Assembly: GCA_031418495.1 (NCBI GenBank)
Contig: JANOXQ010000121.1
Location: 1,858-65,857, forward strand
Source of the DNA: Sphingomonadales bacterium
Lineage (GTDB): Bacteria > Pseudomonadota > Alphaproteobacteria > Sphingomonadales > Sphingomonadaceae
Direction: 5' to 3'
DNA length: 64,000 nucleotides
The translations under genes were made by a program, and so were the position numbers. Numbering within the stretch: position 1 is the stretch's first letter; every line of letters begins with the position of its first letter. The notes under the pieces were generated by a model that saw only the letters and a list, made by a program, of their open reading frames with translations, made no database searches and had not been told where the DNA came from. Positions 18,675 through 41,342 of the stretch are shown in pieces.

Positions 18675-18852
18675 CCCCTTTCAAAAAACGTCGGAAATCT
18701 CAGGAAGTTGACACTGAGTCCGTGTATTCGTTTAGCCCACACGATTTGAAAAAATAGCGAAACCGATCTGCCACGGCAACGCAGTGACGAGGGCAAGTAA
18801 GGGATGGTAGCAGCAATCATGATAGGAACATATCATGAATATTGGATGTAGG
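18675..18852 (-). repeat. dispersed ~180-bp LexA-box element, copy 1
   Basis: Alignable over its whole length with 41163-41342. Plus strand shows CCCCTTTCAAAAAA..TCAGGAAGTTGACACTGA..GAACATATCATGAAT..TGTAGG. Confidence 0.8.
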
Positions 18853-19070
18853 GAAGACGTTTGGTTGGCGGCCTTGTTGTAGGGGGCTGACTGGCTGGTT
18901 TGCCGCTCCCTAATTCATTTCACATCCAAACATGAGGCTGTCCTTTGCTTGAAAACGGGATGAGTTACCCTTCGCCGAGGGCGTTGGTAGTGAAGCGGTG
19001 TAACAATAATCGGATGATCGGTGAATCTGGCGATTGCAGCTTTCCCTCGCTTCGCTGTAGTATAGGTAGG

Positions 19071-20075
19071 GTGGAAATCGTACCTTGCATCTACTGCGAC
19101 GAAACCGATCCGTTCAGATTTTCGGGTCGGGAGCACGTTGTTCCCCAAGCCTTCGGGAAATTTGGCAGCAAAACTCCTACGCTCAAATGCGTATGCGATG
19201 GATGCAATGCTATATTTGGAAGAGAACTCGATCAAATTCTCGCGCGTGACACGTTGGAGGGCATGTTACGCTACAATCAAGGCAAGCGCTCGACCGAAAA
19301 AAGGGCACAACGTCGGTTGCGGATCACACTTGCGGACGAAAGCGAGGCTGAAGGGTTTGTAGGCGCCGTGCTGGAAGGTGTTGACCCGACCAATCTTCAG
19401 CTCATGCCGTTAGCCACCCAGTTACAGATCAAAAATCTGACGACAGGAGAGACGGAGATATTTAAGCGCGCGGAACTCGGGAAATTTGCTCTGCCAGCGG
19501 ACACATTTGGGAAACCGGGGGAGCGCGAACTCGTCGTATACGCCCCTACCAAGGAAGAACACGATGCGTTCATTGTTGAGCTTAATCTTGCAGGATTCGA
19601 TATGCGCATGGATGGAGCATCAATCAGTGGTATTACGCCTTCTATAGATGCAAATGGGGCCGAGACACTCGGTGTCCATGTTGAAGCTACGTTTGATCAA
19701 CTGCACCGACGGGCATTGGCAAAAATCCTCGTTAATTTTGCTGCATACTATCTGGGGATAGCTACGGTAAATTCCTTTGAGTGGACGCCACTCAAGCGGT
19801 TTGTTCGTTACGCAGAAGGCTCATTGGGAGCTAGGCTCTCAAAGAAGCCGTTCTGGACGGGGCAAGAAACCGACAGTTTGCGCTTCCCAGACGCGATAAA
19901 CATTAGACTGGAAAACCACGAAAAGGGGATTGTAGGGGTTATCCAGTTTTATAACCAGATCACATATGAGCTACTGCTAGTTGAGGGCCACTCCTTAGTT
20001 AGGGAAATGGCGGCTCGATTTGAGATTGGCAAAGAACCTACACTCGGCGAGCGGCGACCACGAACATTGATATAA
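19071..20075 (+). CDS. HNH endonuclease domain protein (accessory, candidate defence)
   Basis: CIYC..EHVVPQAFG..VCDGCNAIFG zinc-finger HNH signature at the N-terminus. GTG 19071 is the likely start; the ORF track starts at 18945. Confidence 0.75.
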   Translation: MEIVPCIYCDETDPFRFSGREHVVPQAFGKFGSKTPTLKCVCDGCNAIFGRELDQILARDTLEGMLRYNQGKRSTEKRAQRRLRITLADESEAEGFVGAVLEGVDPTNLQLMPLATQLQIKNLTTGETEIFKRAELGKFALPADTFGKPGERELVVYAPTKEEHDAFIVELNLAGFDMRMDGASISGITPSIDANGAETLGVHVEATFDQLHRRALAKILVNFAAYYLGIATVNSFEWTPLKRFVRYAEGSLGARLSKKPFWTGQETDSLRFPDAINIRLENHEKGIVGVIQFYNQITYELLLVEGHSLVREMAARFEIGKEPTLGERRPRTLI

Positions 20076-20182
20076 TATCTTGAACTGGTGGCTCCGTGAA
20101 AGCTGAAAATAAACGTCCGCTTTTGCTGGTGAACGATTGAGCATCCATTGGCTAAAAACTTGTCGCAACTTGCTTCCCCTTA

Positions 20183-20285
20183 CCGTCGCCCCGCACGTGA
20201 TGCGGGGCTGGGCTTTCCTTATTGGCTGCACTGATCAAAATAGTTGGGGAGTTAGCCAAGCCCCGTGTCGAGCACGGGGCGACGG
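20183..20285. repeat. CGTC-type REP doublet downstream of the HNH gene
   Basis: CCGTCGCCCCGCACGTGATGCGGGGC and GCCCCGTGTCGAGCACGGGGCGACGG in inverted orientation. Confidence 0.8.
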
Positions 20286-20363
20286 GGGTTTTGGGCGTCG
20301 CAGGTTGATTTTTGAACGACTGGAATTTCGTCGCATTTCCCACAAACCAACACGGTCATTTCA

Positions 20364-20594
20364 TCAAATCTGCCCGTTTGCCACAAGCTGCCCCAACACC
20401 GCGTTGACGCGGGTTTGCCATCCGGGGCCGCTGCCGCGCAGATGCTCAACAGTGTTGGCGTCGAGCCGGATTTTTACCTCTACCTTGGGTGCTTCCAGTT
20501 TGGGACGCCCGCGCCGGGATGGCTTCATTCCCGCCAGAAAGTCCGCACTTAGGGGCGGATTATCATCGTGAATCTTTGGGTCAAACTTGTCCAT
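20364..20594 (-). CDS. BrnA-family antitoxin (orphan)
   Basis: DDNPPL..RGRPK..KVEVKIRLD..VEHLRGSGPGWQTRVNAVL motif; no BrnT gene upstream. Confidence 0.85.
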   Translation of the reverse strand: MDKFDPKIHDDNPPLSADFLAGMKPSRRGRPKLEAPKVEVKIRLDANTVEHLRGSGPGWQTRVNAVLGQLVANGQI

Positions 20595-20602
20595 AATAAA
20601 CC

Positions 20603-20938
20603 TCATTTCATGTTTTTCCGCCCCACCCCCGCATCAAACACCGCCATCTCATACGCAATCGAGCTTTCCACCAGCATTTCCCACATCGCGGCGACGAGTG
20701 GTTCGGGTACGCCGGCTTCCCTTGCCGCGTCCTTCGCCGCTGCGATTACACTTGCCTTGCGGTCTTCGTCGCGGACGGCGGCGCGGTCGGTTTTGATGCG
20801 GGCGGCGGCGCGCATGTAGGCGAAGCGCTGCCCCAACAGTGCCACGATCTGCGCGTCTACCGCGTCCACACCGGCGCGGACTTGGGTCATGTTTGTGCAG
20901 GTTTCGGGGGCCAAGAAATGAGAGGATGTCGTCGTCAT
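20603..20938 (-). CDS. chorismate mutase (AroQ type) family protein
   Basis: VRAGVDAVDAQIVALLGQRFAYMRAAARIK..VRDEDR..LVESSIAYE. Confidence 0.88.
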   Translation of the reverse strand: MTTTSSHFLAPETCTNMTQVRAGVDAVDAQIVALLGQRFAYMRAAARIKTDRAAVRDEDRKASVIAAAKDAAREAGVPEPLVAAMWEMLVESSIAYEMAVFDAGVGRKNMK

Positions 20939-21837
20939 AATGCGGTTGCCTCAATATGGTCAATTTGCGCGGGCTTTTGCCGCGCGGCGATGATGCAGCC
21001 GGTGACGATCAGCGCGGTGCCAAGGATCGTTGGCAGCGTCACCGCCTCCTCAAAAAACCACCAGCCAAAGATCGCGGCCCAGATGAACGCGGTATATTCA
21101 ACCGCAACCAGCACCTGCGCCTCGGCGCGCGCATAGGCCCATGACAGCAGCGAAAGCGAAATGAGCGCGAGCATTGCGCTGCCAGTGAGCGCGGGCAAAT
21201 GATGGGCGGCTGGCACGACCGCAAACCAAGGTGCTGCAAGCGCGAGCGCGCTCGCCGCGATCAGGCTTTGGAAAAATGCGATTTCGGCGGGCTTGGCGAC
21301 CTGCGCCTGTTGCCGCTGGAGGATCAGATTGTAAGAATACAGCACCGCCGAGAGGAAAATCGCGGCGACGCCCCATTTCGCGTCCTCGGTGAAGGTGCCA
21401 CCCATCTTGCCACCAAGAATCACCAGCACGCCCGCGATGCCAAGCAGTGAGGCGAGGATGGCGCTCCGCCCAATGGTTTCCTTGAGCAGTACAGCGGCAA
21501 GATACAGCGTGATCAGCGGCGCAATGAACGACAGCGCGACGGCCTCGGCCAGCGGCACCCGCGCCAACCCCCAGAAAAACAGCGTCGCCATCGCAGCGGC
21601 TAGGAATCCCCGAATGACATGGATCTTGAGCGTCGAACGCGGCGGCAGCGGCATCCGCAACGCGAAGAACACCGCCCCACCAATCACCGCACCAATCATG
21701 CAACGCCACAGCATCGCATTGTACGCGCCAATCGCGATCGACAGATCCTTCATCAGCACGTCCATCACCGAGAAAAACGCAATGCCGAGTGTGGCCGTGG
21801 CGAACGGGATCGCGGGATTAAGGACGGGTTTGGACAT
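20935..21837 (-). CDS. DMT (EamA) family transporter
   Basis: About 10 TM helices; FIAPL..LKETIG and EYTAFIWAAIFGWWFFEE motifs. Confidence 0.88.
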   Translation of the reverse strand: MSKPVLNPAIPFATATLGIAFFSVMDVLMKDLSIAIGAYNAMLWRCMIGAVIGGAVFFALRMPLPPRSTLKIHVIRGFLAAAMATLFFWGLARVPLAEAVALSFIAPLITLYLAAVLLKETIGRSAILASLLGIAGVLVILGGKMGGTFTEDAKWGVAAIFLSAVLYSYNLILQRQQAQVAKPAEIAFFQSLIAASALALAAPWFAVVPAAHHLPALTGSAMLALISLSLLSWAYARAEAQVLVAVEYTAFIWAAIFGWWFFEEAVTLPTILGTALIVTGCIIAARQKPAQIDHIEATAL

Positions 21838-21875
21838 CGACGCTGCTTTAGCGAAGGCGGGCGTTACTGCCAGCC

Positions 21876-22934
21876 TTAAAATGCACCCGCTGGCGTCAGC
21901 GCCGCGCGCGCCTCCGCCGTGTTATCGCTGAACAGCCCATCAACGCCCGCCGCAACGAACGCCTTGATTTCGGCGGCAAGATCACCCGGCTTGGTTGGAT
22001 CAGCGCCAGCCTTTTGTCCGGTGGGCAGGAAATAATTCTCGCGCCGGAATGTCCAGGGGTGAACCGCCAGCCCCGCCGCATGAGCATCACGCACGAGCAT
22101 CGTCGGTTTGCCAAGCGCGCCGCTTTTATCGCGTGGGATGATCAGCGCTTTGTTCGGGCCAATCCCGTCAGCATATTTGGCCACTGCCTTTAAGCCCTGC
22201 GGCGTGATGATATCGGTATAGCGCACAGTCGGCGCGTCAGCAGGGCCGCCCTCGGCATCAATGAGCTGGATCAGCCGCAGCTTGGTCTTGCCGCGCAGTG
22301 CCCGCAAATTGCCGACTTCAAAGCTTTGGATAAACACGAGATCGTCGCGCTTGCTATAGCCAAAGCGCGTCAGGCTGGCGAGCAATGCGGCCTCATGCGG
22401 CAGGCCGATCTGCGTGAAATAGGTCGGGTGTTTGGTTTCGGGATAAACGCCAATCCGCCGCTTGAGCTTTGCCTCATTGGTTTTGATCAGTTCCAATATC
22501 TCATCAAAGGTCGGCACGGCAAATTGCCCGTCATAGGCCGTGTTGGCGGGGCGAAGCTGCGGCAGCCGCTCCTTGGCACGCAGCGTCTTGAGTTCGGCGA
22601 GCGTGAAATCTTCGGTGAACCATCCCGTCTTTGCCTCGCCGTCAATCGTCTTGGTGCTTTTCCGCGCCGCGAACTCAGGCCGCGCAGACACGTCGGTCGT
22701 TTCCGAAATCTCATTCTCATGCCGCGCAACGAGAGCCCCGTCCTTGGTCAGCACCAGATCAGGCTCGATGAAATCCGCCCCCTGATCAATCGCAAGCTGA
22801 TAGCTTGCCAGCGTATGTTCGGGCCGCTCACCCGATGCGCCGCGATGCGCGATGAGAATAAGTGAGGCCACAGGGATATCCTTTGCCATGAGGGGCGTTG
22901 CGACGAGCGCGAGAAAGAGCCAGCCGAAACGCAT
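21876..22934 (-). CDS. glycerophosphodiester phosphodiesterase (GlpQ-like, secreted)
   Basis: IAHRGASGERPEHTLASY, IEPDLVLTKDG, ETKHP and IQSFE motifs; signal peptide; ATG 22934. Confidence 0.92.
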   Translation of the reverse strand: MRFGWLFLALVATPLMAKDIPVASLILIAHRGASGERPEHTLASYQLAIDQGADFIEPDLVLTKDGALVARHENEISETTDVSARPEFAARKSTKTIDGEAKTGWFTEDFTLAELKTLRAKERLPQLRPANTAYDGQFAVPTFDEILELIKTNEAKLKRRIGVYPETKHPTYFTQIGLPHEAALLASLTRFGYSKRDDLVFIQSFEVGNLRALRGKTKLRLIQLIDAEGGPADAPTVRYTDIITPQGLKAVAKYADGIGPNKALIIPRDKSGALGKPTMLVRDAHAAGLAVHPWTFRRENYFLPTGQKAGADPTKPGDLAAEIKAFVAAGVDGLFSDNTAEARAALTPAGAF

Positions 22935-22935
22935 C

Positions 22936-23277
22936 CTAGCCAAATACCGAGGCATAAGCATCAGGCTTAAACCCTACGAGCAGCTTGCCCGCGCCTTCAA
23001 GCACCGGGCGTTTGATCATCGACGGCTGCGCCACCATCAGCGCGATGGCCTTGCCTGCGTCAATATCCTGCTTATCCGCCTCGGGGAGCGCTTTGAAGGT
23101 GGTGCCCGCGCGGTTGAGGATCACATTCCAGCCCATTTCATTGCACCATGCGCGCAGCTTCACCGTGTCCGCACCCTGCTTTTTATAATCATGAAACGTA
23201 TAAGCCACGCCGTGCGCATCAAGCCAGACGCGCGCCTTCTTCACCGTATCGCAATTAGGGATGCCGTAGAGGATCAT
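22936..23277 (-). CDS. ArsC/Spx-like (YffB) family protein
   Basis: LYGIPNCDTVKKAR, NRAGTTF and PSMIKRPVLE motifs. Confidence 0.9.
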   Translation of the reverse strand: MILYGIPNCDTVKKARVWLDAHGVAYTFHDYKKQGADTVKLRAWCNEMGWNVILNRAGTTFKALPEADKQDIDAGKAIALMVAQPSMIKRPVLEGAGKLLVGFKPDAYASVFG

Positions 23278-23663
23278 GCTGCTGCCCGTAATGCTGTCAC
23301 TTCAATCTCAACCTTCATTTCGGGGCGGATCAACCCCGCCACGATCAGCGCAGTCGCCGCCGGGCGGATGTCGCCAAACTTCTCACCCAATATCGGCGCA
23401 ATTATATCGTGATATTCTGCCTTTGTGACATAATAAGTCACGCGCACAACATCAGACAGCGCAAAGCCAGCCTTGGCGAGCGCGGTTTCAATAATATTGA
23501 AGGCATTGCGCGTCTGATCGCGGACATCATCGGTAAAAATCTGGGTCGCGGGGTCTGGCCCGGTGGTGCCCGCAACAAAGCACCAATCCCCCTGAACCAC
23601 GGCGCGGCTATACCCCACCTGTTTTTCAAAGGGAGAGCCGGAGGAAATGAGTGTTCGAGTCAT
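23274..23663 (-). CDS. RidA family protein
   Basis: SSGSPFEKQVGYSRAV, RPAAT and KVEIEVTA motifs. Confidence 0.9.
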   Translation of the reverse strand: MTRTLISSGSPFEKQVGYSRAVVQGDWCFVAGTTGPDPATQIFTDDVRDQTRNAFNIIETALAKAGFALSDVVRVTYYVTKAEYHDIIAPILGEKFGDIRPAATALIVAGLIRPEMKVEIEVTALRAAA

Positions 23664-23672
23664 GACGGTTCC

Positions 23673-23888
23673 TTATTTATAATTTTCGCGGCGATCACCA
23701 AAATCACGTACCCGCTTTCGCCACGCGCGGTAACTCCCCGCTTTCAAATGCGCGCGCATGATCGCCTTCACTTGATCAGGCGTCGCCCCGTGCTGATCCT
23801 TGATCACCGCGAAACTGACATGATCACTGAGTGCCATTTCAATGATTTCGCTGAGCGCTGCGGGGGATGGAGTGGAGGGCTTAGGCAC
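23673..23888 (-). CDS. TIGR03643/DUF2805 family small protein
   Basis: IIEMALSDHVSF..VKAIMRAHLKAGSYRAWRKRV pattern. Confidence 0.75.
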   Translation of the reverse strand: MPKPSTPSPAALSEIIEMALSDHVSFAVIKDQHGATPDQVKAIMRAHLKAGSYRAWRKRVRDFGDRRENYK

Positions 23889-24066
23889 CCGGCTGCGCTA
23901 CTATCATAGTCCAGCTTTTACCAGAGGTAAGCCGCGTCATCAAGAGATTGCCATCGGCTGTTTCAGCAACATCAAACTTTTCCCCCGGCAAAAACCTATA
24001 ATGTGCTCGCACCGAAGCAGGGATGGTAAAGCGACCGCGCTTTGTGATGTTGATTGAGAAGTTCAT
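23881..24066 (-). CDS. AbrB/MazE/SpoVT-like DNA-binding small protein
   Basis: ITKRGRFTIPASVRAHYRFLPGEKF swapped-hairpin signature; ATG 24066. Confidence 0.6.
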   Translation of the reverse strand: MNFSINITKRGRFTIPASVRAHYRFLPGEKFDVAETADGNLLMTRLTSGKSWTMIVAQPGA

Positions 24067-24077
24067 GATGGTTGCCT

Positions 24078-25592
24078 TTACGTTGCCGCAATATAAGCAC
24101 GCATTACACCTCGTAGTAAAATCAAACTCATGCGTTCCAACCGCAGTTGGTTGGTTTCTGAAATTTGCTGATGTGCGTTGCCACGGATTGCGTGACAAAT
24201 CGCAAGGTCGCTTGCGATTTCGACTGCCTCTCCCAAGCCTTGCTTGGACTCAAACCAATCCAAATCGATCACACCCTTCTGGTAAGCAATGTTACGATAG
24301 CTCTGGTTTTTAAGCAACTTCCCGACCTCGGAATTTGAAGGCCAAATCTGTTTGAACTTTTCATAGAGTTGCTGCCTTGGGTGAACCCCGCGCTTTACCA
24401 GCAAAGCGCCCGCAAAATGCTCCACGCTAAGTGCCATTCCCTGAAGATAGCTTCGCATCACAACGAGTCGATTGGGATCAACAGAAAAGATGCGCTTATT
24501 GAAAGCGCGCCAGTGCCAGTAAAATCCTTCAAGACCGTTAGCTTCAACGAAATCCAAAAACTCGCTTACCTGTTCTGCCGAAAAATCGGCTCGGAGCAGC
24601 GCCGCAGGACTCGAGAAGCTAGAGAATAGACGCTCAGCACTTTCGCGCCACTCTGAAGCCCAGTTTCGATATATGACTCTGAGGGTTGGTTTGAAATTGC
24701 CTGATACCCTACCGACATCTTCGACGACTTGTTCAAACTCAACGCTTTGCACTTTTCGAGCAAGAATAATTGTCTGCGACAAAACTGATTTATAGGCTTC
24801 CGCTAATATCGGTCGCCCCAGATAATCCCATTCAGACCAGCGACAGGCGAGAAATTTTGCGAGAGTGATTAAGCGCTCATATGTTACGTTAAATTTTGAG
24901 CGACAGGCGTCGGTAACCGCCTTGCTACGATGCTCTATTTCTTCACTTTGCTCTCCCGTCAACAGTCGTCTACGTGAGTCTAAACCTATTACAAAAAGAT
25001 AGTTATTGTCATACTCATCTGCATAATGCGTAACTGCATTCAACATCGATTCATGCTCTTTGAATTTCGCTAGCGTATAATTGCTACCGCCTGCTCCAGA
25101 TTCCAAAAATTGTAGCAACTGCCAACTGCTGTAGTAAACTCTCACATTTTTAGGCTGCCAATCTGGGCCATCGTCACAATCCACCCTTACCCGATATACC
25201 CTCCAAGGCTTAAATTTGGTCAATTGCGGGTCTGATATGAATGGCAGCCATTCGGGCTTGGGTGCATCAAGTGGAAATGGCACTTGCAATGGATCATCGC
25301 CAAAAATTCCGCGCGAGGCGCCGTCATATAGCGCTTTCTCAAGATTATATGCAGCTCTCCAACGCTGGGTGTCACGTTCAAGCACCCCCTTTGGAACCCA
25401 GCCATAATTTGAATTCTCTGATAACCAGCGCCGCTCAACAGCCGCTGGATAAATTATTCTTGTGTGTGGGACAAGAATACGTTCCTTCTCAAGATATTCA
25501 AGTTCTCGCGCATTAACGTTGCCAGATCTTAAACGGAGTTTTGATAGCGCTTCCAAAAACTCTTTGGCGTTCAAATATCGTGAGTGCTTCAT
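24078..25592 (-). CDS. 504-aa accessory hypothetical protein (possible N-terminal MerR-like HTH, C-terminal HEPN-like region)
   Basis: Long ORF with visibly AT-richer codon use; ELEYLEKERILVP near the N-terminus; SVEHF..AIRGNAH near the C-terminus. Confidence 0.6.
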   Translation of the reverse strand: MKHSRYLNAKEFLEALSKLRLRSGNVNARELEYLEKERILVPHTRIIYPAAVERRWLSENSNYGWVPKGVLERDTQRWRAAYNLEKALYDGASRGIFGDDPLQVPFPLDAPKPEWLPFISDPQLTKFKPWRVYRVRVDCDDGPDWQPKNVRVYYSSWQLLQFLESGAGGSNYTLAKFKEHESMLNAVTHYADEYDNNYLFVIGLDSRRRLLTGEQSEEIEHRSKAVTDACRSKFNVTYERLITLAKFLACRWSEWDYLGRPILAEAYKSVLSQTIILARKVQSVEFEQVVEDVGRVSGNFKPTLRVIYRNWASEWRESAERLFSSFSSPAALLRADFSAEQVSEFLDFVEANGLEGFYWHWRAFNKRIFSVDPNRLVVMRSYLQGMALSVEHFAGALLVKRGVHPRQQLYEKFKQIWPSNSEVGKLLKNQSYRNIAYQKGVIDLDWFESKQGLGEAVEIASDLAICHAIRGNAHQQISETNQLRLERMSLILLRGVMRAYIAAT

Positions 25593-25768
25593 TTATTTAA
25601 GATGGCATTCCAAACTCAGATTACAATCGTCATTCAAACCCACCCAGTCTAAAATTAACATGTTTGCACCCCCTCCCTATTATCCAACTGACTCACATAA
25701 GGGCACGAAGGCGATGCGCTGATCCTGCATATGCTTTGCAAGCCTATCGCCGGAGCAGAAATCACTTT

Positions 25769-25965
25769 CCTACAGGCTTTTGTTCATGATATGTTCGCAT
25801 GATGATAGTGCATCTCAACATATCGCTCATACATCCGCTTGGGCCATCTGCGGCGCGCTTTGCTCTTTCGCATCGTCATTTTGCCACAGCGCGCGGGGTG
25901 TGCGGGAATAGTGTTTTGGTGAGACTTTAGTGTGACTTTCTGAACGGATGTTCATCTTGGAAATA
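25769..25965 (+). repeat. dispersed LexA-box element, copy 2 (diverged)
   Basis: CCTACA-N7-GTTCATGATATGTTC (perfect GTTC-N7-GTTC at 25782-25796) ... GACTTTAGTGTGACTTTCTGAAC. Confidence 0.65.
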
Positions 25966-25970
25966 GCAAT

Positions 25971-26060
25971 CTTCGCGCCTCCCGCGCCTTCGCGTGAACC
26001 CTTGCACCCTCAAGGCGCGCGGCGCGGCCTGATTTATCTCACGCAAAGAGGCGAAGAAGA
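25971..26060. repeat. ~90-bp hairpin element with CTTCGCG arms, copy 2
   Basis: Arms and spacer (AACCCTTGCACCCTCAAGGCGCGCGGCGCGGCCTG) are homologous to 18555-18647; a further CTTCGTG-arm pair lies at about 26090-26190. Confidence 0.8.
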
Positions 26061-26189
26061 AAGGCCAGTTTTGGATGTAAAATACCCTCCTCTTCGTGCC
26101 CTTCGTGTCTTCGTGTCTTCGTGTGAACCAAAGCCACGTCTTCTGCGTACTCAAACCTGATTTAATGACTCACACGAAGCCACGAAGGC

Positions 26190-26290
26190 CTGTGCTTTCA
26201 CATCGTCAATTTCGCCTTTCCGGCAAGGCGCGCGGATATATGGATTCAGTCTCAACTTCCTGAGCTTTCCGCCATTTTTTGAAAGGAGCA
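26190..26290 (+). repeat. 5'-truncated copy of the dispersed element (no LexA box)
   Basis: GATTCAGTCTCAACTTCCTGAGCTTTCCGCCATTTTTTGAAAGG matches the conserved end of copies 1 and 3. Confidence 0.75.
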
Positions 26291-26300
26291 TAGCTAGAGA

Positions 26301-26456
26301 ATGACCGCAAATCCTCTCGCGACCCAGCTCATCACATGGCTCAAAACACTGCCACAGCAAAGGCGTCAGTCGGTCACATGTGATAATCTTGTCCTGAGCG
26401 CCTGCAAGGCAGTCGAAGGGGGAACCGAGTTCGCTCAGCATACCGCCCCTAACTAA
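26301..26456 (+). CDS. putative 51-aa peptide (MTANPLATQLITWLKTLPQQRR...), copy 2 of the 67-bp repeat
   Basis: GAAAGGAG upstream of ATG 26301; first 22 codons are shared with 16734 with only synonymous changes; below the ORF-track cutoff. Confidence 0.4.
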   Translation: MTANPLATQLITWLKTLPQQRRQSVTCDNLVLSACKAVEGGTEFAQHTAPN

Positions 26457-26877: not shown

Positions 26878-26885
26878 ACCCGCGT

Positions 26886-32903: not shown

Positions 32904-32969
32904 GCTTACCTTTAATAATCAACGTCTAGCCAAGGTGTCTTAGCGAGGTAAAACAGTGGTGTCTAGCGT

Positions 32970-35300
32970 CTAAAACTTAACCGCTAATTCAACCCCGAAG
33001 GTGCGCGGTTCGTTCACAAATCCGGTCAGATTGTTGAAATCAATCCCGCCGACCGCTGACGTGTCATTGGTCAGATTGCGGACATAGCCCGACACTTCAA
33101 ACCTGTCGGTTTTGTAGCCTAATCGCGCGCCGAGTTCGACCAAGCGGCGATCCTGAAACTCAACCGATTCGTAGAGGAAGAAGTTGATGCGTGAACGGAA
33201 AGCAATGTCGCTGAACGCATAGACCTCGCCATTACCAACCGGCACACCGTAACGTGCAGTGGCGTTGGCAATCCAGCGCGGGCTTTGCGGCAGGCGGTTG
33301 CCATTGATGTTGACGATGGCCGCCGAAAAAGGGGCGGAGGGCGTAACAATTGGATCAAGCAAGGTGCAGAGCGAAACATTGGGGAAGGTATCCACACGTA
33401 CTGCACCGCAAGCTGCCGTCGTCAGATTGCGATCCTGAATCTTGGTGTTGTTGTAGCTAAGCCCAGCGGTGAACAAAAATTCAGGCACTGGCTTAAATTC
33501 GGCATCAACTTCAAATCCGTAACCGCGCACATTACGTGCATTGATGAGGCGGTTTGCGTTGACCCCGCCACCAACGGCAGTGAGCTGTGCGTTCTTGAGA
33601 TCATAATAAAAGCCGTTGGCGTTGAACCGGCCCTTGCCATCCGCAAATTCGGTTTTGATGCCGGCTTCATAAGAGGTGATCGTTTCGGAGCGACCAACGG
33701 TCACGCCCGATTCAAGTGGCGTCGCAGTGGCAGGCGGGAAGAGGATACGCCCTTGGATGCTTGGCGCACGATAACCACGCGCAACGCGGGCATAGAGGCT
33801 CACATCGTCAGTCGCCTTATAATTTGCCGCGATGTCCCACGTGATATTGTCATCCTTGACCGAGCGGTTGACCGTACCGAGTGGGTTTTGGAGGAAGTTC
33901 GGAAATTGCGTATCGCGACTGCGGACAACGCGGTAAGTGCGCTTGTCATCATTATAACGCGCGCCGCCCGTGAGGCTAAACTGATCGGAGAGCTTGTAGG
34001 TGAGCGAACCGAAGACGCCGTACGCCTTGCTCTTTTGGCGCTGATCAACGGTAATATTGATCCCGCCGACGGCATTATTAGGATCACCAAGCGTTGAGAA
34101 ATTGTCCGAAAGGATGCGCAGTTTCTCATCGAAGTAGAATACACCACCCTGATAGCTAAACGCGCCATCACCGTTGCTCGCGATACGGAATTCCTGCGTG
34201 AACTGCTTTAGGCTTGGCACAGCGTCGCGCGTTTCGGCGGTGAATGGGATTACGCCGGGGCCGGTGAGATTGGGCGGCAGGAAATTCGCGCCAAAACCGC
34301 CGTCAACATCGCCAACCGAAGTCGCGTCACCGTCCCAATAGCTCGTTACTGAAAAGAGCGAGATTGGCCCGGCATCATAGGTGATCCGCGCGGTGCCGTT
34401 GTAGGTGTTGACCTCTTGCTCATTCTGCCCGTCAGTGCTGACCGTGAAGCGGCGGAAATTGGCGTTGAGGCCGCGCTGTCCGCGTGTGAAGACGTTGGCA
34501 CGGAATACGCGCGCGGTGCCATCAAGCGTGCGCGCTTGGCCGCTCAGCAAAATATCAAGGTCTTCGCTTGGCTTGAGGAGAAGCTGGAGACGCCCGGCAA
34601 ACTCATCATAGCCTTCAAGCGCATTCTTGGTCGTCCCGCTTGGCAAGACATTGTCGATATAATCATCCTGCCGCTGATAGAAAAGCGAAAGTCGGGCCGA
34701 GACTTTTTCGCCCGATAGATTGCCGCCAACCGCGCCTTCAAGGCTGACCTGATTGAAGCGACCATATGACGCACGGAGATAGCCGTTCAAATCTTTGCCG
34801 GGTTTAACCGAGTCAAACTTTACGATACCAGCAGGCGTATTGCGGCCAAAGAGCGTGCCCTGCGGCCCGCGCAGCACCTCAACCTGAGCAATATCAAACA
34901 CTGGGAAGCCTTTGAGGATAGGGTTTTCCAAAACAACATCATCATAGATGAGGCTGACGGGCTGCGACGCGTTGAAATCAAAATCGGTATTGCCAAGCCC
35001 GCGAATATAAAAACGTGGGAAAGTGCGGCCAAATGACGATTCAACGATCAGGCTTGGTACGCGCGCTGAAAGAAAACGGATATCAGCACCCGCCGCCGAG
35101 ATATTGCCGAGTTTTTCACCGCCAATTGCGGTGACTGACAACGGCACATCCTGAAGGTTTTCATCGCGGCGCTGGGCTGTCACGATGATTTCGCCAAGGC
35201 CAGCCTCTTCGGCGGCAGGCGCTGTCTGCGCAATGGCAGGTGCAGCCGTTGAGGTAAGCAGGGCAACGGTAAGAAAGTGAGCAAATGTAGCCAAGCGCAT
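32970..35300 (-). CDS. TonB-dependent receptor
   Basis: EIIVTAQRRDENLQDVPLSVTA, VEVLRGPQGTLFGRN plug motifs; C-terminal EPRTFGVELAVKF. Confidence 0.95.
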   Translation of the reverse strand: MRLATFAHFLTVALLTSTAAPAIAQTAPAAEEAGLGEIIVTAQRRDENLQDVPLSVTAIGGEKLGNISAAGADIRFLSARVPSLIVESSFGRTFPRFYIRGLGNTDFDFNASQPVSLIYDDVVLENPILKGFPVFDIAQVEVLRGPQGTLFGRNTPAGIVKFDSVKPGKDLNGYLRASYGRFNQVSLEGAVGGNLSGEKVSARLSLFYQRQDDYIDNVLPSGTTKNALEGYDEFAGRLQLLLKPSEDLDILLSGQARTLDGTARVFRANVFTRGQRGLNANFRRFTVSTDGQNEQEVNTYNGTARITYDAGPISLFSVTSYWDGDATSVGDVDGGFGANFLPPNLTGPGVIPFTAETRDAVPSLKQFTQEFRIASNGDGAFSYQGGVFYFDEKLRILSDNFSTLGDPNNAVGGINITVDQRQKSKAYGVFGSLTYKLSDQFSLTGGARYNDDKRTYRVVRSRDTQFPNFLQNPLGTVNRSVKDDNITWDIAANYKATDDVSLYARVARGYRAPSIQGRILFPPATATPLESGVTVGRSETITSYEAGIKTEFADGKGRFNANGFYYDLKNAQLTAVGGGVNANRLINARNVRGYGFEVDAEFKPVPEFLFTAGLSYNNTKIQDRNLTTAACGAVRVDTFPNVSLCTLLDPIVTPSAPFSAAIVNINGNRLPQSPRWIANATARYGVPVGNGEVYAFSDIAFRSRINFFLYESVEFQDRRLVELGARLGYKTDRFEVSGYVRNLTNDTSAVGGIDFNNLTGFVNEPRTFGVELAVKF

Positions 35301-35525
35301 GGTGGAAAACTCCTGCAGGTCATTTTAATAAATATGGCGCGGCCATGATAGGCTTATCTTACGCGGTCAAGCGCTGCCAGCAGTCTAAGCGCGGTTTTTG
35401 CACGGTTGTTGCCATAATGTGACGGCTAGCAACCATGTTTAAAAGCTGTTTCTTAAAGCCCGCGCCATAGGCCATGTAGCGGGAACCAGGGGAAATGCAG
35501 TGCTGCATCCGTGCAAGCGTGATCA

Positions 35526-35948
35526 ATGACGGGCGACAGGCGACTGGGCGCAACGCGAGCTGAGGCACGCCTCTTTCGCTACGAGCGCGAATTGCAGGAC
35601 GCAATCAGGCGGCAATTGGCAATGGTTGAACCGGGCTTAGTAGAGGCCGATGGCGGCCATGAACGCTCAGTTGCTACTGGCAAGATTGATATTGTTGCGC
35701 GGGATCTGGCGGGGCATTTCGTTGTGATTGAACTCAAGGCTGGGCCGTGTCCACACGGCGCGCTTGAGCAGGTGCTCGCTTATTCAAGCGATCTTGAGGC
35801 TGAAACAGGCACGCCGTGCCGCGCGATCCTTGTTGCAGCGCAATTTTCTGAGCGTATTCGTGCGGCCGCAAAGCGTGCGCGCGACGTTTCGCTGGTTACT
35901 TACGAGCTTCAGCTTGGCCTTGCAGAAGCGCCTCCTCAACCGCGTTAA
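35526..35948 (+). CDS. stand-alone NucS/EndoMS C-terminal-like PD-(D/E)xK nuclease domain (DUF91)
   Basis: ERELQD..GKIDIVARD..VVIELK..QVLAY motif set; only 140 aa. Confidence 0.75.
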   Translation: MTGDRRLGATRAEARLFRYERELQDAIRRQLAMVEPGLVEADGGHERSVATGKIDIVARDLAGHFVVIELKAGPCPHGALEQVLAYSSDLEAETGTPCRAILVAAQFSERIRAAAKRARDVSLVTYELQLGLAEAPPQPR

Positions 35949-37074
35949 AGGCTGAGCGGCCCTTTGCGGCCTCATCGGCAACGGCGGTGATAAAGTAAGC
36001 CGTACCAGTGCCAGCAACAGGATCAATCCACAGCCCAGAGCGAAGCCCGTAAGCCTCACCGGGATGACCAATCCTCTGTCGCCCATCACCAAAAGGATCA
36101 TCTTTGCAACCCGTAGCGCCGCTCGCAAGCATCTGCACCGCAAGCGCGTAGCTACACCAGAAACCGCCTTCTGTGTCACCGTTCGAACCGTCATAGCGCC
36201 ACTGCGGGCTAATCATTACCTTGAAAGAGGCGGGTTTGAGGAAACCACGTCCGCGCCTCAATAGCATTTGCCCGACTGTCGCCAGCCCGCGCGCGCTGAT
36301 CCGCAAGCCGCCCTGAGGTGAGAATAATGCGCCGTTCGTGGCCAGTATATAGCGGCTCAAATTGCAACTGCCATCAGCGGCGGGCACCGTAGGACATGCG
36401 GGGCGCTTGCCTTGCAAATGATCGCGCCGGATAGCTCCCGCGCCGTCAGTCAGCACCACCGCGCGCGTCACGGTCGCGTCGCTGCATGTTGTCCAGTTGA
36501 AACAGGCGTCGAACTTAAGTGGCTTGAACACCAGCCACGCCATAAGCGTGTCAAAGCGCTTGCGCGTCGCTGCCTCCATCACACTCGCGATTACTGGAAA
36601 ATTGAGGTTGGCATAACGAAAATATGCGCCAGGCGGATGCGCTGCGTCCCACGCTTTCGGATCGGCTGCACTGGCCTGCACGCTCCCACCAAGCGGGATC
36701 GCATAATCAACATTATCGGTAAGACTTGACTGGTGCGACAGCAGCAGGCGAAGCGTGATAGCCTTATCAGGAAAGGCGGGATTGCGCAGCCGCCAGCCAA
36801 GATAATCCGAAACATCACGGTCAAGGTTGAGCTTGCCCGCATCCACCAATCGCATCACGGCGAGCGCAACGACTAGTTTTGAAACCGATGCGATCCGCGC
36901 TGGATCATCTATGGTCAGGCTTCGCTTGGCAAACGGATCCGCCATGCCTGTGGTGGTGGTACTGGTGATCGCCCGCGCGTTAAAGGTCACAATCGCTGAA
37001 GCACCAAAATCTGCTGCGTGCGCCGGAGCGATTGTTAGCAACAGAGCAAAAAGTGTCAGAAAAAAGCGCTTCAT
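35896..37074 (-). CDS. serine hydrolase, beta-lactamase/AmpC-like family (secreted)
   Basis: IASVSKL (SxxK), LLLSHQSS, FRYAN and GHPG motifs; signal peptide. Confidence 0.85.
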   Translation of the reverse strand: MKRFFLTLFALLLTIAPAHAADFGASAIVTFNARAITSTTTTGMADPFAKRSLTIDDPARIASVSKLVVALAVMRLVDAGKLNLDRDVSDYLGWRLRNPAFPDKAITLRLLLSHQSSLTDNVDYAIPLGGSVQASAADPKAWDAAHPPGAYFRYANLNFPVIASVMEAATRKRFDTLMAWLVFKPLKFDACFNWTTCSDATVTRAVVLTDGAGAIRRDHLQGKRPACPTVPAADGSCNLSRYILATNGALFSPQGGLRISARGLATVGQMLLRRGRGFLKPASFKVMISPQWRYDGSNGDTEGGFWCSYALAVQMLASGATGCKDDPFGDGRQRIGHPGEAYGLRSGLWIDPVAGTGTAYFITAVADEAAKGRSAFNAVEEALLQGQAEARK

Positions 37075-37233
37075 ATGGCGATGTTATCGCATCCGTAAGC
37101 GCGCCGTGCAACTCTGTTAAAAGCGTGATGGCTATCACTAACGTTTGGCCAAGCATTATGCTAATAATTGACTCATTAATCGATATAACGGGCCGCAGTT
37201 CGTACACCCAAAAACTCCCGAAAGGAGTGTGTC

Positions 37234-38254
37234 ATGTCCTGCCAATGCTTCATTATCCCCAAAGATGTGCTTGAGCGTTATTCAAAAGATAGGTCATTGC
37301 CCGGGGCTGATCGTAAGCAATTTGCCGATGCTGCTAATTTCGAAAGTGAATGGCGCAAGGCACGCGCGGTTAATGCAAAGCTCGCGGTGTCTGGGCAGAA
37401 TATGCTTGAAAGCGTTTTGCAGGCGGTATTCCCGCCCCCGGTTCTAGTCAGCGATTGTAAGAACGGAACTATGCTATCAGGCACCCCCATTGCCGATCCG
37501 GGTAGCTCATCCGATGGCACTGCAAAACGTGCTTTTGACGAAACAAAAGCGGTTGCCAATTTCTATAAACAGATATTCGGGCGCAATTCGCTCGATAATA
37601 ATGGCAAAACCCTGCTCTCATCGACCCACTTTGGCGTCAAATATAACAACGCCTTTTGGAACGGAAACCGGATGACTTACGGGGACGGGGACGGCAATAT
37701 CTTCGTCGATTTCACCAAATCCAACGACGTGATTGCGCATGAGCTAACCCACGGCGTCACCCAGTTTACATCGCAATTTGCTTACACCAATCAGGCGGGT
37801 GGCCTCAACGAAAGCATGTCTGACGTATTCTGATCTATGTTCCGTCAATGGCGCGCCAATCAGACCGTCAATCAGGCCGATTGGCTGATCGGCAGCGGGA
37901 TAATAGGGCCGCGTGCCGCTGCGCAAGGCTTTACCTGCCTGCGTGATATGGCGAACCCAGCGGCCACTTATGCCCTTGCGCCTCAACCGACACATTTTAG
38001 CCAATATCAGAACGGCATGGATCCGCACGAAAGCAGTGGTATTCCCAACCTCGCTTTTTACAAGGCAGCCAAAGCGTATGGCGGAAAAAGCTGGGAAAAG
38101 ATTGGCAAAATCTGGTACAAGGTATTGGCAGGTTATGCAGCTTCACCCAATTTAAGGATGTTGGCTTTTGCGAACCGAACGCGTCGACAGGCTAGGCTTA
38201 TGTTTCCTGGCGATGCTGCTTTGTACAACGCCATCAATAGCCGTCGGACTGTAA
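37234..38254 (+). pseudogene. protealysin-like M4 metalloprotease, disrupted by an in-frame TGA (37831) and a frameshift (about 38240)
   Basis: CFIIP propeptide, YNNAFWNG, HELTHG, GGLNESMSDVF-stop-SMFRQW, PHESSGIPN; the natural end AVGL-stop (38240-38254) is in a shifted frame. Confidence 0.85.
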
Positions 38255-38282
38255 GGCGGCCCGTATTGAAAGGCCGCGCGAT

Positions 38283-38570
38283 ATGGGCATACTCAAGGTT
38301 GAACGTATCGGCGGTCTTGCTGGCTTTGGCGGCGCTAAATCGCGGCTCAAGAGTGACGGCGAAATCGCGTTTTCGGCACTGCCGCTCAGTGATCAGAAGG
38401 CGGTGGAGGCGCTGTTTAAGGCGCATGGAACTGCCGCCCCATCGCAAACGCGCGATGGTTTTAGTTACCGCATTACACGCGGGGGGAGTGCGGTAGGCGA
38501 GAGTATTCTCGTTCCCGAGGATACAATGCCCGCCGCCCTTATCGCCTGTGTGAAAGACCGGATCGGTTAA
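38283..38570 (+). CDS. emfourin (protealysin inhibitor) family protein
   Basis: LKVERIGGLAGFG..RDGFSYRIT..VPE pattern; canonical position directly downstream of a protealysin-like gene. Confidence 0.8.
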   Translation: MGILKVERIGGLAGFGGAKSRLKSDGEIAFSALPLSDQKAVEALFKAHGTAAPSQTRDGFSYRITRGGSAVGESILVPEDTMPAALIACVKDRIG

Positions 38571-38965
38571 GCTGGGCCCATCCGGAATACGCACAATTTA
38601 TTACCATCAGGATCACGGAAATAGGCCGCGTAAAATGCTTGTGGCCCTTCTTCTCCGCGCAAACCCGGAGGGCCTTCGCAACTGCCGCCAAGTTCAAGTG
38701 CCTTTGAATAAAGCGCATCAACCTTGGCCCGTTCATCAACGGTAAGCGCGAGCATGTTGCCATTGCCAGCCGTCGCGGCAGCCTTGTTATGCGGATTGGT
38801 GACGGCAATGCCTGGTTTGTCAAACGCGACACCCCATAGCGTGAACCCACCGAGGTCATCACCAAATTCCATCATCCGCTTTGCGCCAATTTCGCCAAGC
38901 AGCGCATCGTAAAAAGCACGGGCGCGCGGCAGATTATCGCTGCCTAATGTTGCGTAACCGATCAT
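38567..38965 (-). CDS. VOC family protein
   Basis: MIGYATLGSDNLPRARAFYDALL..YAAYFRDPDGNKL. Confidence 0.9.
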   Translation of the reverse strand: MIGYATLGSDNLPRARAFYDALLGEIGAKRMMEFGDDLGGFTLWGVAFDKPGIAVTNPHNKAAATAGNGNMLALTVDERAKVDALYSKALELGGSCEGPPGLRGEEGPQAFYAAYFRDPDGNKLCVFRMGPA

Positions 38966-38988
38966 CTCTCTCTCCTCTTGCGTATCAT

Positions 38989-39426
38989 TCAGCCAAACGC
39001 ATCGCCGCCCGCAGGCAGCGGCGCAAACCGGATTAGCCGACTGGTCAGCACCGCCGCCTGACGGTGAACCACAGCGATCCGGTAATCGGGATCTGTGACC
39101 ATTTCAAGAAACGCCGAAGCTGTGGGGTATGACGCGATGAAACTTGCATCCCACCGTGCCTCATCAGGGCCGATCAGCACTGCCTCCATATGCCCGCGCC
39201 AGACGATACCGCCGCCGCCGCGCGCGAATATGGGGGCGCTGGTGCGGCCATATTCAGCATAAGCCTGCGCGCCGCTTAAGCCTTTGCCAGCATGGCTATG
39301 TCCTTCGGGATAAGCCGCCACCTCGCGAAAGCGGAGCAGGTTGAGCATGTTAATCGGCATATCGCGCGGGAGTGATTTGAAAAAATCAAACTGCGCGCGC
39401 TCTGGGTCAACATGCTCATCGTGCAT
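38989..39426 (-). CDS. DUF1330 family protein
   Basis: PINMLNLLRFR..AYAEYG..YPTASAFLEMV..HRQAA pattern. Confidence 0.8.
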   Translation of the reverse strand: MHDEHVDPERAQFDFFKSLPRDMPINMLNLLRFREVAAYPEGHSHAGKGLSGAQAYAEYGRTSAPIFARGGGGIVWRGHMEAVLIGPDEARWDASFIASYPTASAFLEMVTDPDYRIAVVHRQAAVLTSRLIRFAPLPAGGDAFG

Positions 39427-39444
39427 TGCCTTGGCTACCTTTGT

Positions 39445-40998
39445 TTAGCGAGACGGGGTGAAGTTGGGCCTTGGCGTCAGTGGAGCGCCGCCAATTTCAA
39501 ACGCATGGCCAGCCGCTAACACCTTCGCATCGGCCCATTTGAGGCCAATGAACGAAAGCCCAACCGGCAGACCGTTGGTCAACCCCATCGGCACGGTCAA
39601 ATGCGGATAGCCTGCGACCGCCGGACGCTGGCTTGCGCTTGGCCCGATAAAGGCATCACCCGAACCAAGCGTCGTCCGCCACGCAACGCCGTTGGTCTGT
39701 GTCACCAGCACATCAAGCCGGTTGGTCGAAAACAGCCGGTCAAGCCCGTCGGTGCGCGACAGCCGCCGCGCCGTTGCAAGCGCTGAGGTGTAAGTGGTGG
39801 TGTTCAATCCCGTCGTCTGCTGCGACGCTACAAACGTCTCTTGTCCAAAAAATTGCAGCTCGGTTGCGGCATTGGCCGTGTTGAAAGCAATCAGATCAGC
39901 CAGAGTCCGCGATGGCACGAGGCCCGTCGGAAGCCCCTGAAGATAAAGGCCGATATCAACCTTAAACTCGGTCAGCAGCACGGTATTTTCCGCCGAACCA
40001 AGTGTGCCCGAGGACGGATAAGTGACCGAAACCACCGTCGCACCCGCATTGCGCAACCGTGTGATTGCGGCCGAAATCAACCCCTCATCGGTGCCCGACG
40101 TGCGGATTATACCAACGCGCAAACCGCGCAGCCCGTTCGCGCTCAGCGCCGCCACATAATCGACCTTGCGCGCATCGGCCTCAACCGTTGCTGGGTCGGT
40201 TGGATCACTGCCCGCCATTGCGGTCAGCATGATTGCCGCATCACGCACGGTGAGCGTCATTGGCCCAGCGGTATCTTGGCTGCGACTGATCGGCACAATG
40301 CGTGAGCGCGAGACGAGGCCAACTGTTGGCTTAAACCCTACAACGCCGTTGACCGAAGACGGGCAGACGATTGATCCGTCAGTCTCAGTACCAACTGCGC
40401 CCGACGCGAGCCGCGCCGCCATGCCAGCGCCGCTCCCTGAGGAGGAGCCACAAGCATTGTGCGTCAGCAGATAAGGATTGCGCGTGAGACCGCCGGTCAG
40501 GCTATACCCACTGGTCGAGCCATTGCCGCGAAAATTGGCCCATTCGGAAAGGTTGGTCTTGCCAAGGATGATCGCGCCCGCCGCACGCAGCCGCGCGACC
40601 ATTGGCGCATCACGGCGCGTGTTGTTGTTCCGAAGCGCAAGCGATCCAGCGGTCGTCGCCATATTATCCGACGATTCGATATTATCCTTGAGGAAAATCG
40701 GGATGCCGTGGAGTAGCCCACGCACCCGCCCGCTTGCGCGTTCGGCATCAAGCGCGCGCGCCTGCGCGATGATATCGGGATTGGTGACGATCACCGCGCG
40801 GATCGCTGGCCCCGCATCATCAATCGCCGCAATCCGAGAGAGATAGGCCTGAACCAGCGCCTCACTCGTCGTCCGTCCAGCGGAAAGATCAGCCGCATTT
40901 TCCGAAAGTGTCTTCGGCAGCGCCGTCTGAGCCGCAAGGGGTTGCGCAAAAGCCGCCACCGCTGCAACACATCCAAATATCGTAATTCTCTTTTGCAT
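39445..40998 (-). CDS. amidase signature family enzyme (secreted)
   Basis: LHGIPIFLKDNI, GKTNLSEWAN, GSSSGSG and GTETDGSIVCPS motifs; signal peptide. Confidence 0.92.
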   Translation of the reverse strand: MQKRITIFGCVAAVAAFAQPLAAQTALPKTLSENAADLSAGRTTSEALVQAYLSRIAAIDDAGPAIRAVIVTNPDIIAQARALDAERASGRVRGLLHGIPIFLKDNIESSDNMATTAGSLALRNNNTRRDAPMVARLRAAGAIILGKTNLSEWANFRGNGSTSGYSLTGGLTRNPYLLTHNACGSSSGSGAGMAARLASGAVGTETDGSIVCPSSVNGVVGFKPTVGLVSRSRIVPISRSQDTAGPMTLTVRDAAIMLTAMAGSDPTDPATVEADARKVDYVAALSANGLRGLRVGIIRTSGTDEGLISAAITRLRNAGATVVSVTYPSSGTLGSAENTVLLTEFKVDIGLYLQGLPTGLVPSRTLADLIAFNTANAATELQFFGQETFVASQQTTGLNTTTYTSALATARRLSRTDGLDRLFSTNRLDVLVTQTNGVAWRTTLGSGDAFIGPSASQRPAVAGYPHLTVPMGLTNGLPVGLSFIGLKWADAKVLAAGHAFEIGGAPLTPRPNFTPSR

Positions 40999-41162
40999 GA
41001 CCCGTCCTTGTGCTTATCGTTGAAGCGCGGAGATTGCCCGATCAGAGGTCGTCATGCAAGATGGGCGTGTTGCAATATGAGGCTGGATTGGTGTGGGAAG
41101 GCGTTGGACTGATTTTGTCGCGCAAAGGTGCGAAGAAGAAGGGGCATAATTTTCTAGGAGCA

Positions 41163-41342
41163 CCCCTTTCAAAAAAGTAACGGAAAACTCAGGAAGTTGA
41201 CACTGAATCGGTATGTTTTCCAACTCCGCGCGATGAGAAAAATACGGCCCAACCGGTACGCCAAAACGACGCACTGAGAAGGGCAAGCCAAGGGCGATAA
41301 CATCAACCATATTCAGAACATAGCATGAATATTTGGTGTAGG
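41163..41342 (-). repeat. dispersed ~180-bp LexA-box element, copy 3
   Basis: Collinear with 18675-18852; GAACATAGCATGAAT at 41316-41330, TGTAGG at 41337-41342. Confidence 0.8.

Follow-up and report, generated by a model that had tools for sequence, protein, structure and literature searches.

We identified a dispersed, non-coding DNA element of ~240 nucleotides (nt) that recurs in a 64,000-nt stretch of a Sphingomonadales genome (contig JANOXQ010000121.1, positions 1,858 to 65,857, assembly GCA_031418495.1; hereafter the window), which comes from freshwater-sediment metagenomes. The element represents a new, clade-restricted SOS-box non-coding family that most likely acts as a DNA-damage-controlled leader or small RNA (sRNA)-like unit. 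It is also a reliable marker of replaceable gene slots with defence and toxin-antitoxin (TA) content, of which it forms the stable edge.

A dispersed non-coding element with a LexA-type box

Four related copies had been listed for the window in the initial annotation, and all four were recovered by nhmmer with a hidden Markov model built from 36 copies. The 22-mer GATTCAGTGTCAACTTCCTGAG was found at three window sites with at most one mismatch (18699-18720 and 41188-41209 on the minus strand, 26243-26264 on the plus strand) vs. none in 100 shuffles. Overall, ~70 distinct copies are known from Sphingomonadales metagenome-assembled genomes (MAGs) and metagenomes. An exact-pattern scan using one genome per species located the core at ~50 places, and a scan of metagenomes yielded 22 further core copies. 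In the genome scan, true core matches were confined to a few Sphingomonadales MAGs (GFS_4306, GFS_8868, GFS_3822, GL106, VAR_78, and H41-bin166), an uncultured group whose carrying members have ~15-20 element copies per genome. The single core match in viral contigs was a chance match inside a coding region. No Rfam family matched the 64 kb when gathering thresholds were applied; E-value mode merely paired a repetitive extragenic palindromic (REP) hairpin with models by chance (plant miRNA precursor). A literature search on LexA-box repeats or SOS sRNAs in sphingomonads gave nothing relevant. The parts of the four copies, together with the LexA-type box of uvrB (the reference SOS gene of the window), are as follows.

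18644-18886, minus strand: copy 1, full element (nhmmer match 18644-18879, E=1.1e-60)
18847-18852, minus strand: CCTACA of copy 1
18826-18840, minus strand: LexA-type box of copy 1, ATTCATGATATGTTC
18818-18820, minus strand: conserved ATG of copy 1
18699-18720, minus strand: core of copy 1, GACTCAGTGTCAACTTCCTGAG
18674-18688, minus strand: U-tract and GAAAGGGGG of copy 1
18562-18639, no strand: REP-like long hairpin after copy 1, CCTTCGCGCCTTCGCGTGAA...TTCACGCGAAGGCGCGAAGG
25751-25913, plus strand: copy 2, promoter part and body (nhmmer match 25751-25858, E=5.2e-8)
25769-25774, plus strand: CCTACA of copy 2
25782-25796, plus strand: perfect box of copy 2, GTTCATGATATGTTC
25914-25961, plus strand: family B unit, TTTTGGTGAGACTTTAGTGTGACTTTCTGAACGGATGTTCATCTTGG, replacing the A core of copy 2
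26189-26322, plus strand: copy 3, 5'-truncated, without promoter part (nhmmer match 26209-26315, E=7.5e-21)
26243-26264, plus strand: core of copy 3, GATTCAGTCTCAACTTCCTGAG, after the 3' body and followed by a U-tract and GAAAGGAG
41128-41378, minus strand: copy 4, full element (nhmmer match 41131-41371, E=6.6e-61)
41337-41342, minus strand: CCTACA of copy 4
41316-41330, minus strand: box of copy 4, ATTCATGCTATGTTC
41188-41209, minus strand: core of copy 4
43599-43613, plus strand: LexA-type box of uvrB, GTTCTTGCTATGTCC, overlapping the uvrB start

The element opens at its 5' side with a promoter-like block (CCAATCA, 5-7 nt, then CTTTCCTACA), which is followed after 6 or 7 nt by the box ATTC-ATGATAT-GTTC. 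Of the 34 LexA-type copies, 30 have ATTC as their first half-site, and the 7-nt spacer ATGATAT is conserved like the half-sites. A conserved ATG stands 5 nt after the box, and a pyrimidine-rich body (C 0.32, T 0.30, G 0.20, A 0.19 on one strand) separates box and core by 108-110 nt in 30/34 copies. The core segment has the order AATATACC-GATTCAGTGTCAACTTCCTGAG-ATTTCCG and includes the invariant GAYTCAGTGTCAACTTCCTGAG; the 22-mer GATTCAGTGTCAACTTCCTGAG is identical in ~70 copies. On its 3' side are 3-4 nt, a U-tract of five or six residues, and the Shine-Dalgarno-like GAAAGGGG, and a REP-like hairpin of ~100 nt usually comes next. The edges of the element are not sharp, and no terminal inverted repeats common to copies 1 and 4 were found, which sets it apart from miniature inverted-repeat transposable elements (MITEs). 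It also differs from REP sequences and bacterial interspersed mosaic elements (BIMEs), as it is longer (~240 nt) and non-palindromic and the REP hairpins or doublets adjoin it as separate units.

The promoter end had been described as CCTACA-N6/7-RTTC-N7-GTTC, and copies 1, 2, and 4 indeed have this arrangement. Taken alone, RTTC-N7-GTTC shows no enrichment in the window (five found vs. 3.9 expected), and three of the five matches are the near-identical 15-mers of these copies; the significant feature is the conservation of the 15-mer across copies, not the bare pattern. A perfect GTTC-N7-GTTC is present in copy 2 (25782-25796) and in three sets of the collected loci (L006, L042, and L020/L024). 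In the Caulobacter work cited in PMC9578287 (da Rocha et al. 2008), GTTCN7GTTC is the SOS box.

Like alphaproteobacterial LexA operators, the element's box is a direct (A/G)TTC, GTTC repeat with 7-nt spacing, and boxes of this type lie at or over the starts of uvrB, PA0069 radical-SAM, RarA-like, and VOC/bleomycin-resistance-like genes. Unlike these operators, it has ATTC as first half-site in 88% of copies and a spacer as conserved as the half-sites, and it is part of a ~240-nt module with ~20 repeats, mostly without an SOS gene behind it. The box would best be read as a LexA-type operator, and the proposal of a dispersed family with such an operator is in agreement with the matching box type before the PA0069 radical-SAM, RarA-like, VOC/glyoxalase, and uvrB genes. 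Searches with tblastn for LexA, RecA, SSB, and UvrA, made to find reference operators for the clade, gave no match in the collected locus DNA.

A fifth promoter-like module without core, CTTTCTACA-N4-ATTCATTAAGGGTTC, is located at 63739-63766 on the minus strand. It lies 56 nt upstream of an open reading frame (ORF) of 184 amino acids (63129-63683, minus strand) with no Pfam or NCBIfam match, the ribosome-binding region of which (TTTGAAAGGAG) resembles TTTTTTGAAAGGGG at the 3' side of the element.

The 3' end of copy 2 had been taken for a diverged core. It is instead a separate conserved unit, family B (TTTTGGTGAGACTTTAGTGTGACTTTCTGAAC), and the orthologues of copy 2 at L019, L009, and L036 have an intact A core. 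Family B (TTTTGGTGAGAC..TTAGTGTGACTTTCTGAACGGATGTTCATCTTGG) is likewise dispersed and has a hairpin that resembles that of the core; it was also seen at L004, L018, L025, L045, L055, L067, and L083, usually 3' of a REP hairpin and downstream of A-type elements, and it is present in L067 and absent from the orthologous L069. The CTTCGCG/GCGAAG arms noted beside the elements belong to a REP-like hairpin with a stem of ~20 bp, and the hairpin type after copy 1 also trails most LexA-type copies in other genomes. Long REP-like hairpins lie 3' of elements at 18562-18639, 25966-26060, and 26090-26190, with stems of ~20-26 bp (CTTCGCGCCTTCGCGTGA.. or a CTTCGTG variant).

Variable gene slots at the promoter side

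Different MAGs have orthologous copies of the element. Similarity is highest in pairs whose downstream flanks are conserved (body identity 72-88%), and orthologous copies persist between species whose coding DNA is 75-94% identical; copy 4 and its orthologue in L041 share 87.7% identity. In such pairs, homology starts 0-60 nt upstream of CCTACA (once ~180 nt), and upstream of this point there are 1.3-3.6 kb of unrelated DNA before synteny resumes. This slot pattern was seen for L017/L039, L019/L036, L021/L055, L034/L044, L048/L061, window copy 4/L041, and window copy 2/L019; L011/L063 and L031/L056/L059 had no upstream homology within the loci. No such variable DNA was found between the element and its downstream gene.

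Synteny was broken at the 5' edge of the element in 8-11 of 13 interspecies loci, whereas of the 58 other gene junctions covered by these alignments only 3 were broken (Fisher p = 1.6e-5 to 1e-8). The central observation of the initial annotation, that the element marks accessory-gene differences on its CCTACA side, is therefore correct and statistically strong, given the slot comparisons and the junction counts. In the comparison of sites in relatives that it proposed, genes with no relation to each other were found to occupy one position between conserved flanks. The variable segments have a lower G+C content (0.46-0.53).

Slot genes with recognisable families included Shedu SduA (PADLOC 2.6e-135), HEC-01 A and B (6e-153 and 2e-77), and a Mokosh-like (MkoC-like) helicase (8.8e-45). 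The TA-type genes comprised PemK/MazF, PIN with Phd, RHH with PIN, DUF4160, and HigBA-like modules, the latter adjoining elements at three different loci. The slot genes of the window, with G+C at third codon positions (GC3) where available, are listed below.

18945-20075, plus strand: slot gene at copy 1, HNH_5 endonuclease-domain protein (GC3 0.52)
24078-25592, minus strand: slot gene at copy 2, 504-amino-acid protein with no family match (GC3 0.45)
41532-42401, plus strand: slot gene at copy 4, 289-amino-acid protein with no family match

Other genes occupy the position of the 504-amino-acid gene in GFS_4306, GFS_3822, and GFS_8868. Close homologues of its product were found in the same slot beside the same element in other samples, and a 46%-identical homologue belongs to a defence island that also holds CD-NTase and QatABCD genes. 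Since the distant homologues are in ordinary defence islands with no element nearby, there is no evidence that this cargo travels with or targets the element. At copy 4, L041 has an unrelated gene for 376 amino acids in place of the 289-amino-acid gene. The contig data for the latter gave a depth of 12 in run X1 and 0 in X2, X4, and X6, with both flanks present in all four. Slot alleles of one family shared 47-57% protein identity between flanks that are 92-99% identical (L034/L044, L025/L051, and L020/L024), which suggests allelic replacement or strong diversification.

Cargo genes had been described as pointing away from the element. This is the case for the three full copies in the window, but among ~45 copies the nearest slot gene is divergent in about half and co-directional otherwise. 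The REP doublet CGTCGCCCCG follows two cargos, the HNH and 289-amino-acid genes, as reported previously (94.6% identity over 37 nt). This doublet (CGTCGCCCCGCAC.TGATGCGGGGC ... GCCCCGTG..CACGGGGCGACG) lies at ~20178-20296 and 42522-42635 and also near 18517-18545, and its REP type also bounds the slot in L041.

Two further differences were observed between the window and its relatives. In GFS_8868 (L015:5369-5529), the homologue of window position 16536 is joined directly to that of 26468, so the 10-kb block 16537-26440 with copies 1-3 is elsewhere or absent at that site; the truncated copy 3 is at the edge of this block. An ORF of 145 amino acids (38989-39426; region 38980-39441) is absent from the syntenic L041, a small indel without an element.

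Downstream genes and the direction of the unit

The whole module is the sole upstream sequence of a PA0069-family radical-SAM gene (NCBIfam 1.3e-143) in four genomes, where the gene starts 35 nt after the core motif. In another genome, the module lies 78 nt upstream of a RarA-like AAA ATPase gene. With the module directly upstream of these two genes, it is most likely an SOS-controlled leader or sRNA-like unit. The VOC/glyoxalase gene at L006 has a perfect GTTC-N7-GTTC in front of it and the core after its stop codon, and at L020/L024 the box holds the ATG of a small helix-turn-helix (HTH)-like ORF that extends to the core. The LexA box previously attributed to uvrB is present, but it is imperfect (GTTCTTGCTATGTCC) and overlaps the start codon. 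As the uvrB ATG (43609) is inside the box and has no Shine-Dalgarno sequence, a leaderless mRNA is suggested. For these gene-proximal copies, transcription from the box towards the core would be the only fitting reading.

The next downstream gene was co-oriented in 33 of 46 copies (binomial p=0.0045). Besides the two repair genes, those in this position are housekeeping genes, namely an amidase gene (39445-40998, in the orientation of copy 4), ubiH-like, pepN, rpoZ, ndk, ctpA-like, M20 peptidase, and methyltransferase genes.

The core also occurs behind other 5' parts, in which C(T/G)TCCTACA is kept and the LexA-type box is missing, and in some loci it directly follows ORFs. A locus of the contact-dependent growth inhibition (CDI) type (L083:1-8377, minus strand) has the promoter-like block CTGTCCTACA and the core 38 nt before an orphan cdiA fragment. 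The order there is the C-terminal part of cdiA, an immunity-like gene, the promoter-like block with core, the orphan cdiA fragment (1036 amino acids), a further immunity-like gene, an ORF of 67 amino acids with a B unit and core, and then the next orphan. L045 has the same arrangement, headed by a LexA-type box. The position of the core before orphan cdiA-CT modules implies that it behaves as a portable leader signal, and orphan toxin modules may obtain from it an expression signal of their own.

Leader, repeat or capture platform

Our preferred reading, to which we would give somewhat less than an even chance, is that of a non-coding transcription unit, specific to the clade and passed on vertically, and not of a gene-capture machine. 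A LexA-type operator (ATTC/GTTC-N7-GTTC) in the promoter-like block CCAATCA..CTTTCCTACA would control transcription towards the core. The product would be a pyrimidine-rich, unstructured RNA of ~150-190 nt that has the invariant hairpin, the U-tract, and the Shine-Dalgarno-like GAAAGGGG. In places, some SOS genes (PA0069 radical-SAM, RarA-like) would have the unit as their actual 5' leader. The 38-nt core alone would be a portable signal in leaders or between cistrons that works together with other promoters (orphan cdiA-CT, ilvE-like, and after the VOC gene with the LexA box), and a sequence-specific trans factor would probably recognise it. The orphan copies, ~15-20 in each genome, would be SOS-inducible leaders or sRNA-like units, selected upstream of housekeeping genes and mostly co-oriented with them.

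Several results weigh against this reading. The first half-site is off consensus in 88% of copies (ATTC, a difference of one base that is itself conserved). Simple scans found no canonical sigma-70 hexamers and no intrinsic terminator, and RNA-seq runs were sought and none found. In an RNAalifold prediction on 31 copies, only the core was predicted to form a hairpin (5-6 bp; stem UUCAG/CUGAG, loop UGUCAACUUC). The stem has just 5 bp, with no compensatory changes and no covariation. Many downstream genes (ubiH-like, pepN, rpoZ, and ndk) would not be expected to belong to the SOS response, and between the element and the downstream gene there is usually a REP hairpin. Passive homologous recombination alone also fails to explain the concentration of slots at elements.

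Folding z-scores of six copies were no better than shuffles (+0.64, -0.46, +1.18, +0.16, +0.78, and +1.5). Two positions flanking the core hairpin are correlated (counts 27/7/6/16, p=2e-4) and in one class would lengthen the stem by A-U, G-U, and G-U pairs, and the family B variant retains the stem via two one-sided changes; both observations lend weak support to an RNA hairpin. Other identities considered for the core were an ECF/EcfG or sigma-E promoter, an IHF site, an integron core site, a GANTC/GcrA site, and an insertion sequence (IS) end; each fits part of the sequence or some copies only and was dropped.

It is possible, though in our view unlikely, that the copies are trans-acting, SOS-induced sibling sRNAs, of which the loop or the CU-rich 5' part pairs with mRNAs and for which the neighbouring genes are irrelevant. 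Known SOS-induced or sibling sRNAs include IstR-2 in E. coli and Qrr. Similar to these, the element has a LexA-type operator before a short non-coding unit and many paralogues with a common invariant segment. Variable bodies, a pyrimidine-rich 5' half with C > G, and a U-tract after the hairpin would also fit, and a co-oriented downstream gene is missing for copies 1 and 3 (12/46 overall). A promoter-like block is conserved and a U-tract is present, but scans revealed no consensus promoter and no recognisable intrinsic terminator. The element differs from known sRNAs in that no terminator, predicted structure, or Rfam match was found and in the presence of the core inside mRNA leaders and between cistrons. 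Moreover, sites complementary to the core in the 390 kb searched were chance 9-mers without enrichment, and the one-sided variable DNA and the downstream orientation bias suggest a link in cis. A small leaderless protein from the conserved ATG after or inside the box is very improbable. The ATG is conserved, uvrB and the HTH ORF at L020/L024 start inside the box (leaderless starts thus occur with this promoter type), and in three of four PA0069-linked copies the ORF from this ATG ends in an ATGA overlap with the gene start. However, with spacings of 108, 109, and 110 nt the core falls into three frames, the ORFs range from 23 to >85 amino acids, column entropy has no codon periodicity, and substitutions at codon positions 1/2/3 (114/88/102 in 15 close pairs) have no third-position excess, in agreement with the earlier statement that no reading frame is conserved.

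A selfish or neutral repeat, i.e., a functionless, decayed MITE or REP-like sequence with a chance LexA-like box that gathers in permissive intergenic DNA along with REPs and accessory genes, is an improbable explanation. It would be consistent with the REP-rich intergenic surroundings, with truncated, tandem, and REP-interrupted copies (window copy 3; L065, L051, and L093), and with the presence or absence of family B between L067 and L069. Dispersed repeats that bear regulator sites include the Correia elements of Neisseria, BIMEs and RIPs with IHF sites, and 'mobile promoters'. Our element resembles them: it is a short repeat dispersed between genes, it has parts similar to promoters and protein sites, and it stands beside REP hairpins, and by analogy it could alter the expression of neighbouring genes. 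It differs in lacking terminal inverted repeats and target duplications, in the old, orthologous nature of its copies, and in its invariant 22-nt core that is also used with unrelated promoters. Nor would a functionless repeat be expected to keep orthologous copies across species with 75-94% identical coding DNA, a core 100% conserved in ~70 copies, and the box with its spacing where nearby intergenic DNA is unalignable, or to form the sole region 5' of PA0069 and RarA-like genes.

We regard as still less probable a landing pad, in which a recombinase encoded elsewhere, possibly under SOS control, inserts or swaps genes at the CTTTCCTACA end of ~20 dispersed single-slot sites. The variable segments lie strongly and one-sidedly at the 5' edge of the element, the cargo is of defence or TA type, HigBA-like modules recur beside elements at three loci, the REP doublet bounds two window cargos, and the pad itself has a LexA-type box. 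However, neither an integrase, as previously noted, nor a transposase is encoded in the window, and among the 25 commonest families listed for 95 neighbour proteins there is no recurrent integrase, transposase, or HUH family and no recombinase family common to at least two of the proteins. Near boundaries have no fixed junction nucleotide (homology ends 0-60 or even 180 nt from CCTACA), far boundaries are core-gene ends, sometimes with REP, that have no common motif, no att-like site or palindrome was found, and distant homologues of the 504-amino-acid protein lie in ordinary defence islands without the element. Cargo orientation is mixed, and the promoter of the element would be directed away from the slot. 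Short core-REP 'joints' in the contig data were not accepted as evidence of excision, as they are 24-32-nt matches between multi-copy repeats. Integrons have a LexA-controlled intI, attI/attC sites, and cassette arrays, which include defence cassettes in Vibrio. The likeness lies in an SOS box and variable accessory, defence, or TA genes beside a conserved non-coding platform; here, by contrast, there is no integrase, attC-type palindrome, or fixed junction, one slot per site replaces the array, and cassettes are of mixed orientation with their own signals. With no recombinase, fixed junction, att-like site, or orientation rule found, the integron-like capture platform put forward earlier is unsupported. 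The element also does not move with its cargo, as it is resident and vertically conserved. There is only a slim chance that defence and TA cassettes dock at the copies as dispersed, SOS-wired sites (~20 chromosomal slots), where a trans factor (a recombinase or RNA-guided enzyme) that recognises the core or the CTTTCCTACA block would exchange genes upon DNA damage, in a distributed, integrase-less analogue of the integron.

Under the preferred reading of a vertically inherited transcription unit, the element and its downstream gene would be the conserved edge of an intergenic slot, and this would be why variable defence and TA genes are found immediately 5' of the promoter. Slot content would be replaced by homologous recombination through conserved flanks, in the fashion of minimal mobile elements. 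In Neisseria, such elements consist of different, unrelated genes that take up one position between conserved flanks in related genomes, with no dedicated recombinase. Our slots are similar to minimal mobile elements or replacement islands in these respects, and recombination in the flanks would be the simplest route of exchange, but here one flank at many loci is a copy of one repeated SOS-box element.

Confirmation of the transcript and of its control by LexA would make the element a new family of leaders or non-coding RNAs that Rfam lacks. The invariant signal that SOS genes and orphan CDI toxin modules share with ~20 orphan units in each genome would then point to a sequence-specific reader. 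The slot loci allow one to ask how defence hotspots arise without integrases and whether the DNA-damage response is coupled to them, and, in practice, variable defence slots of this clade can be located with the element as a marker.

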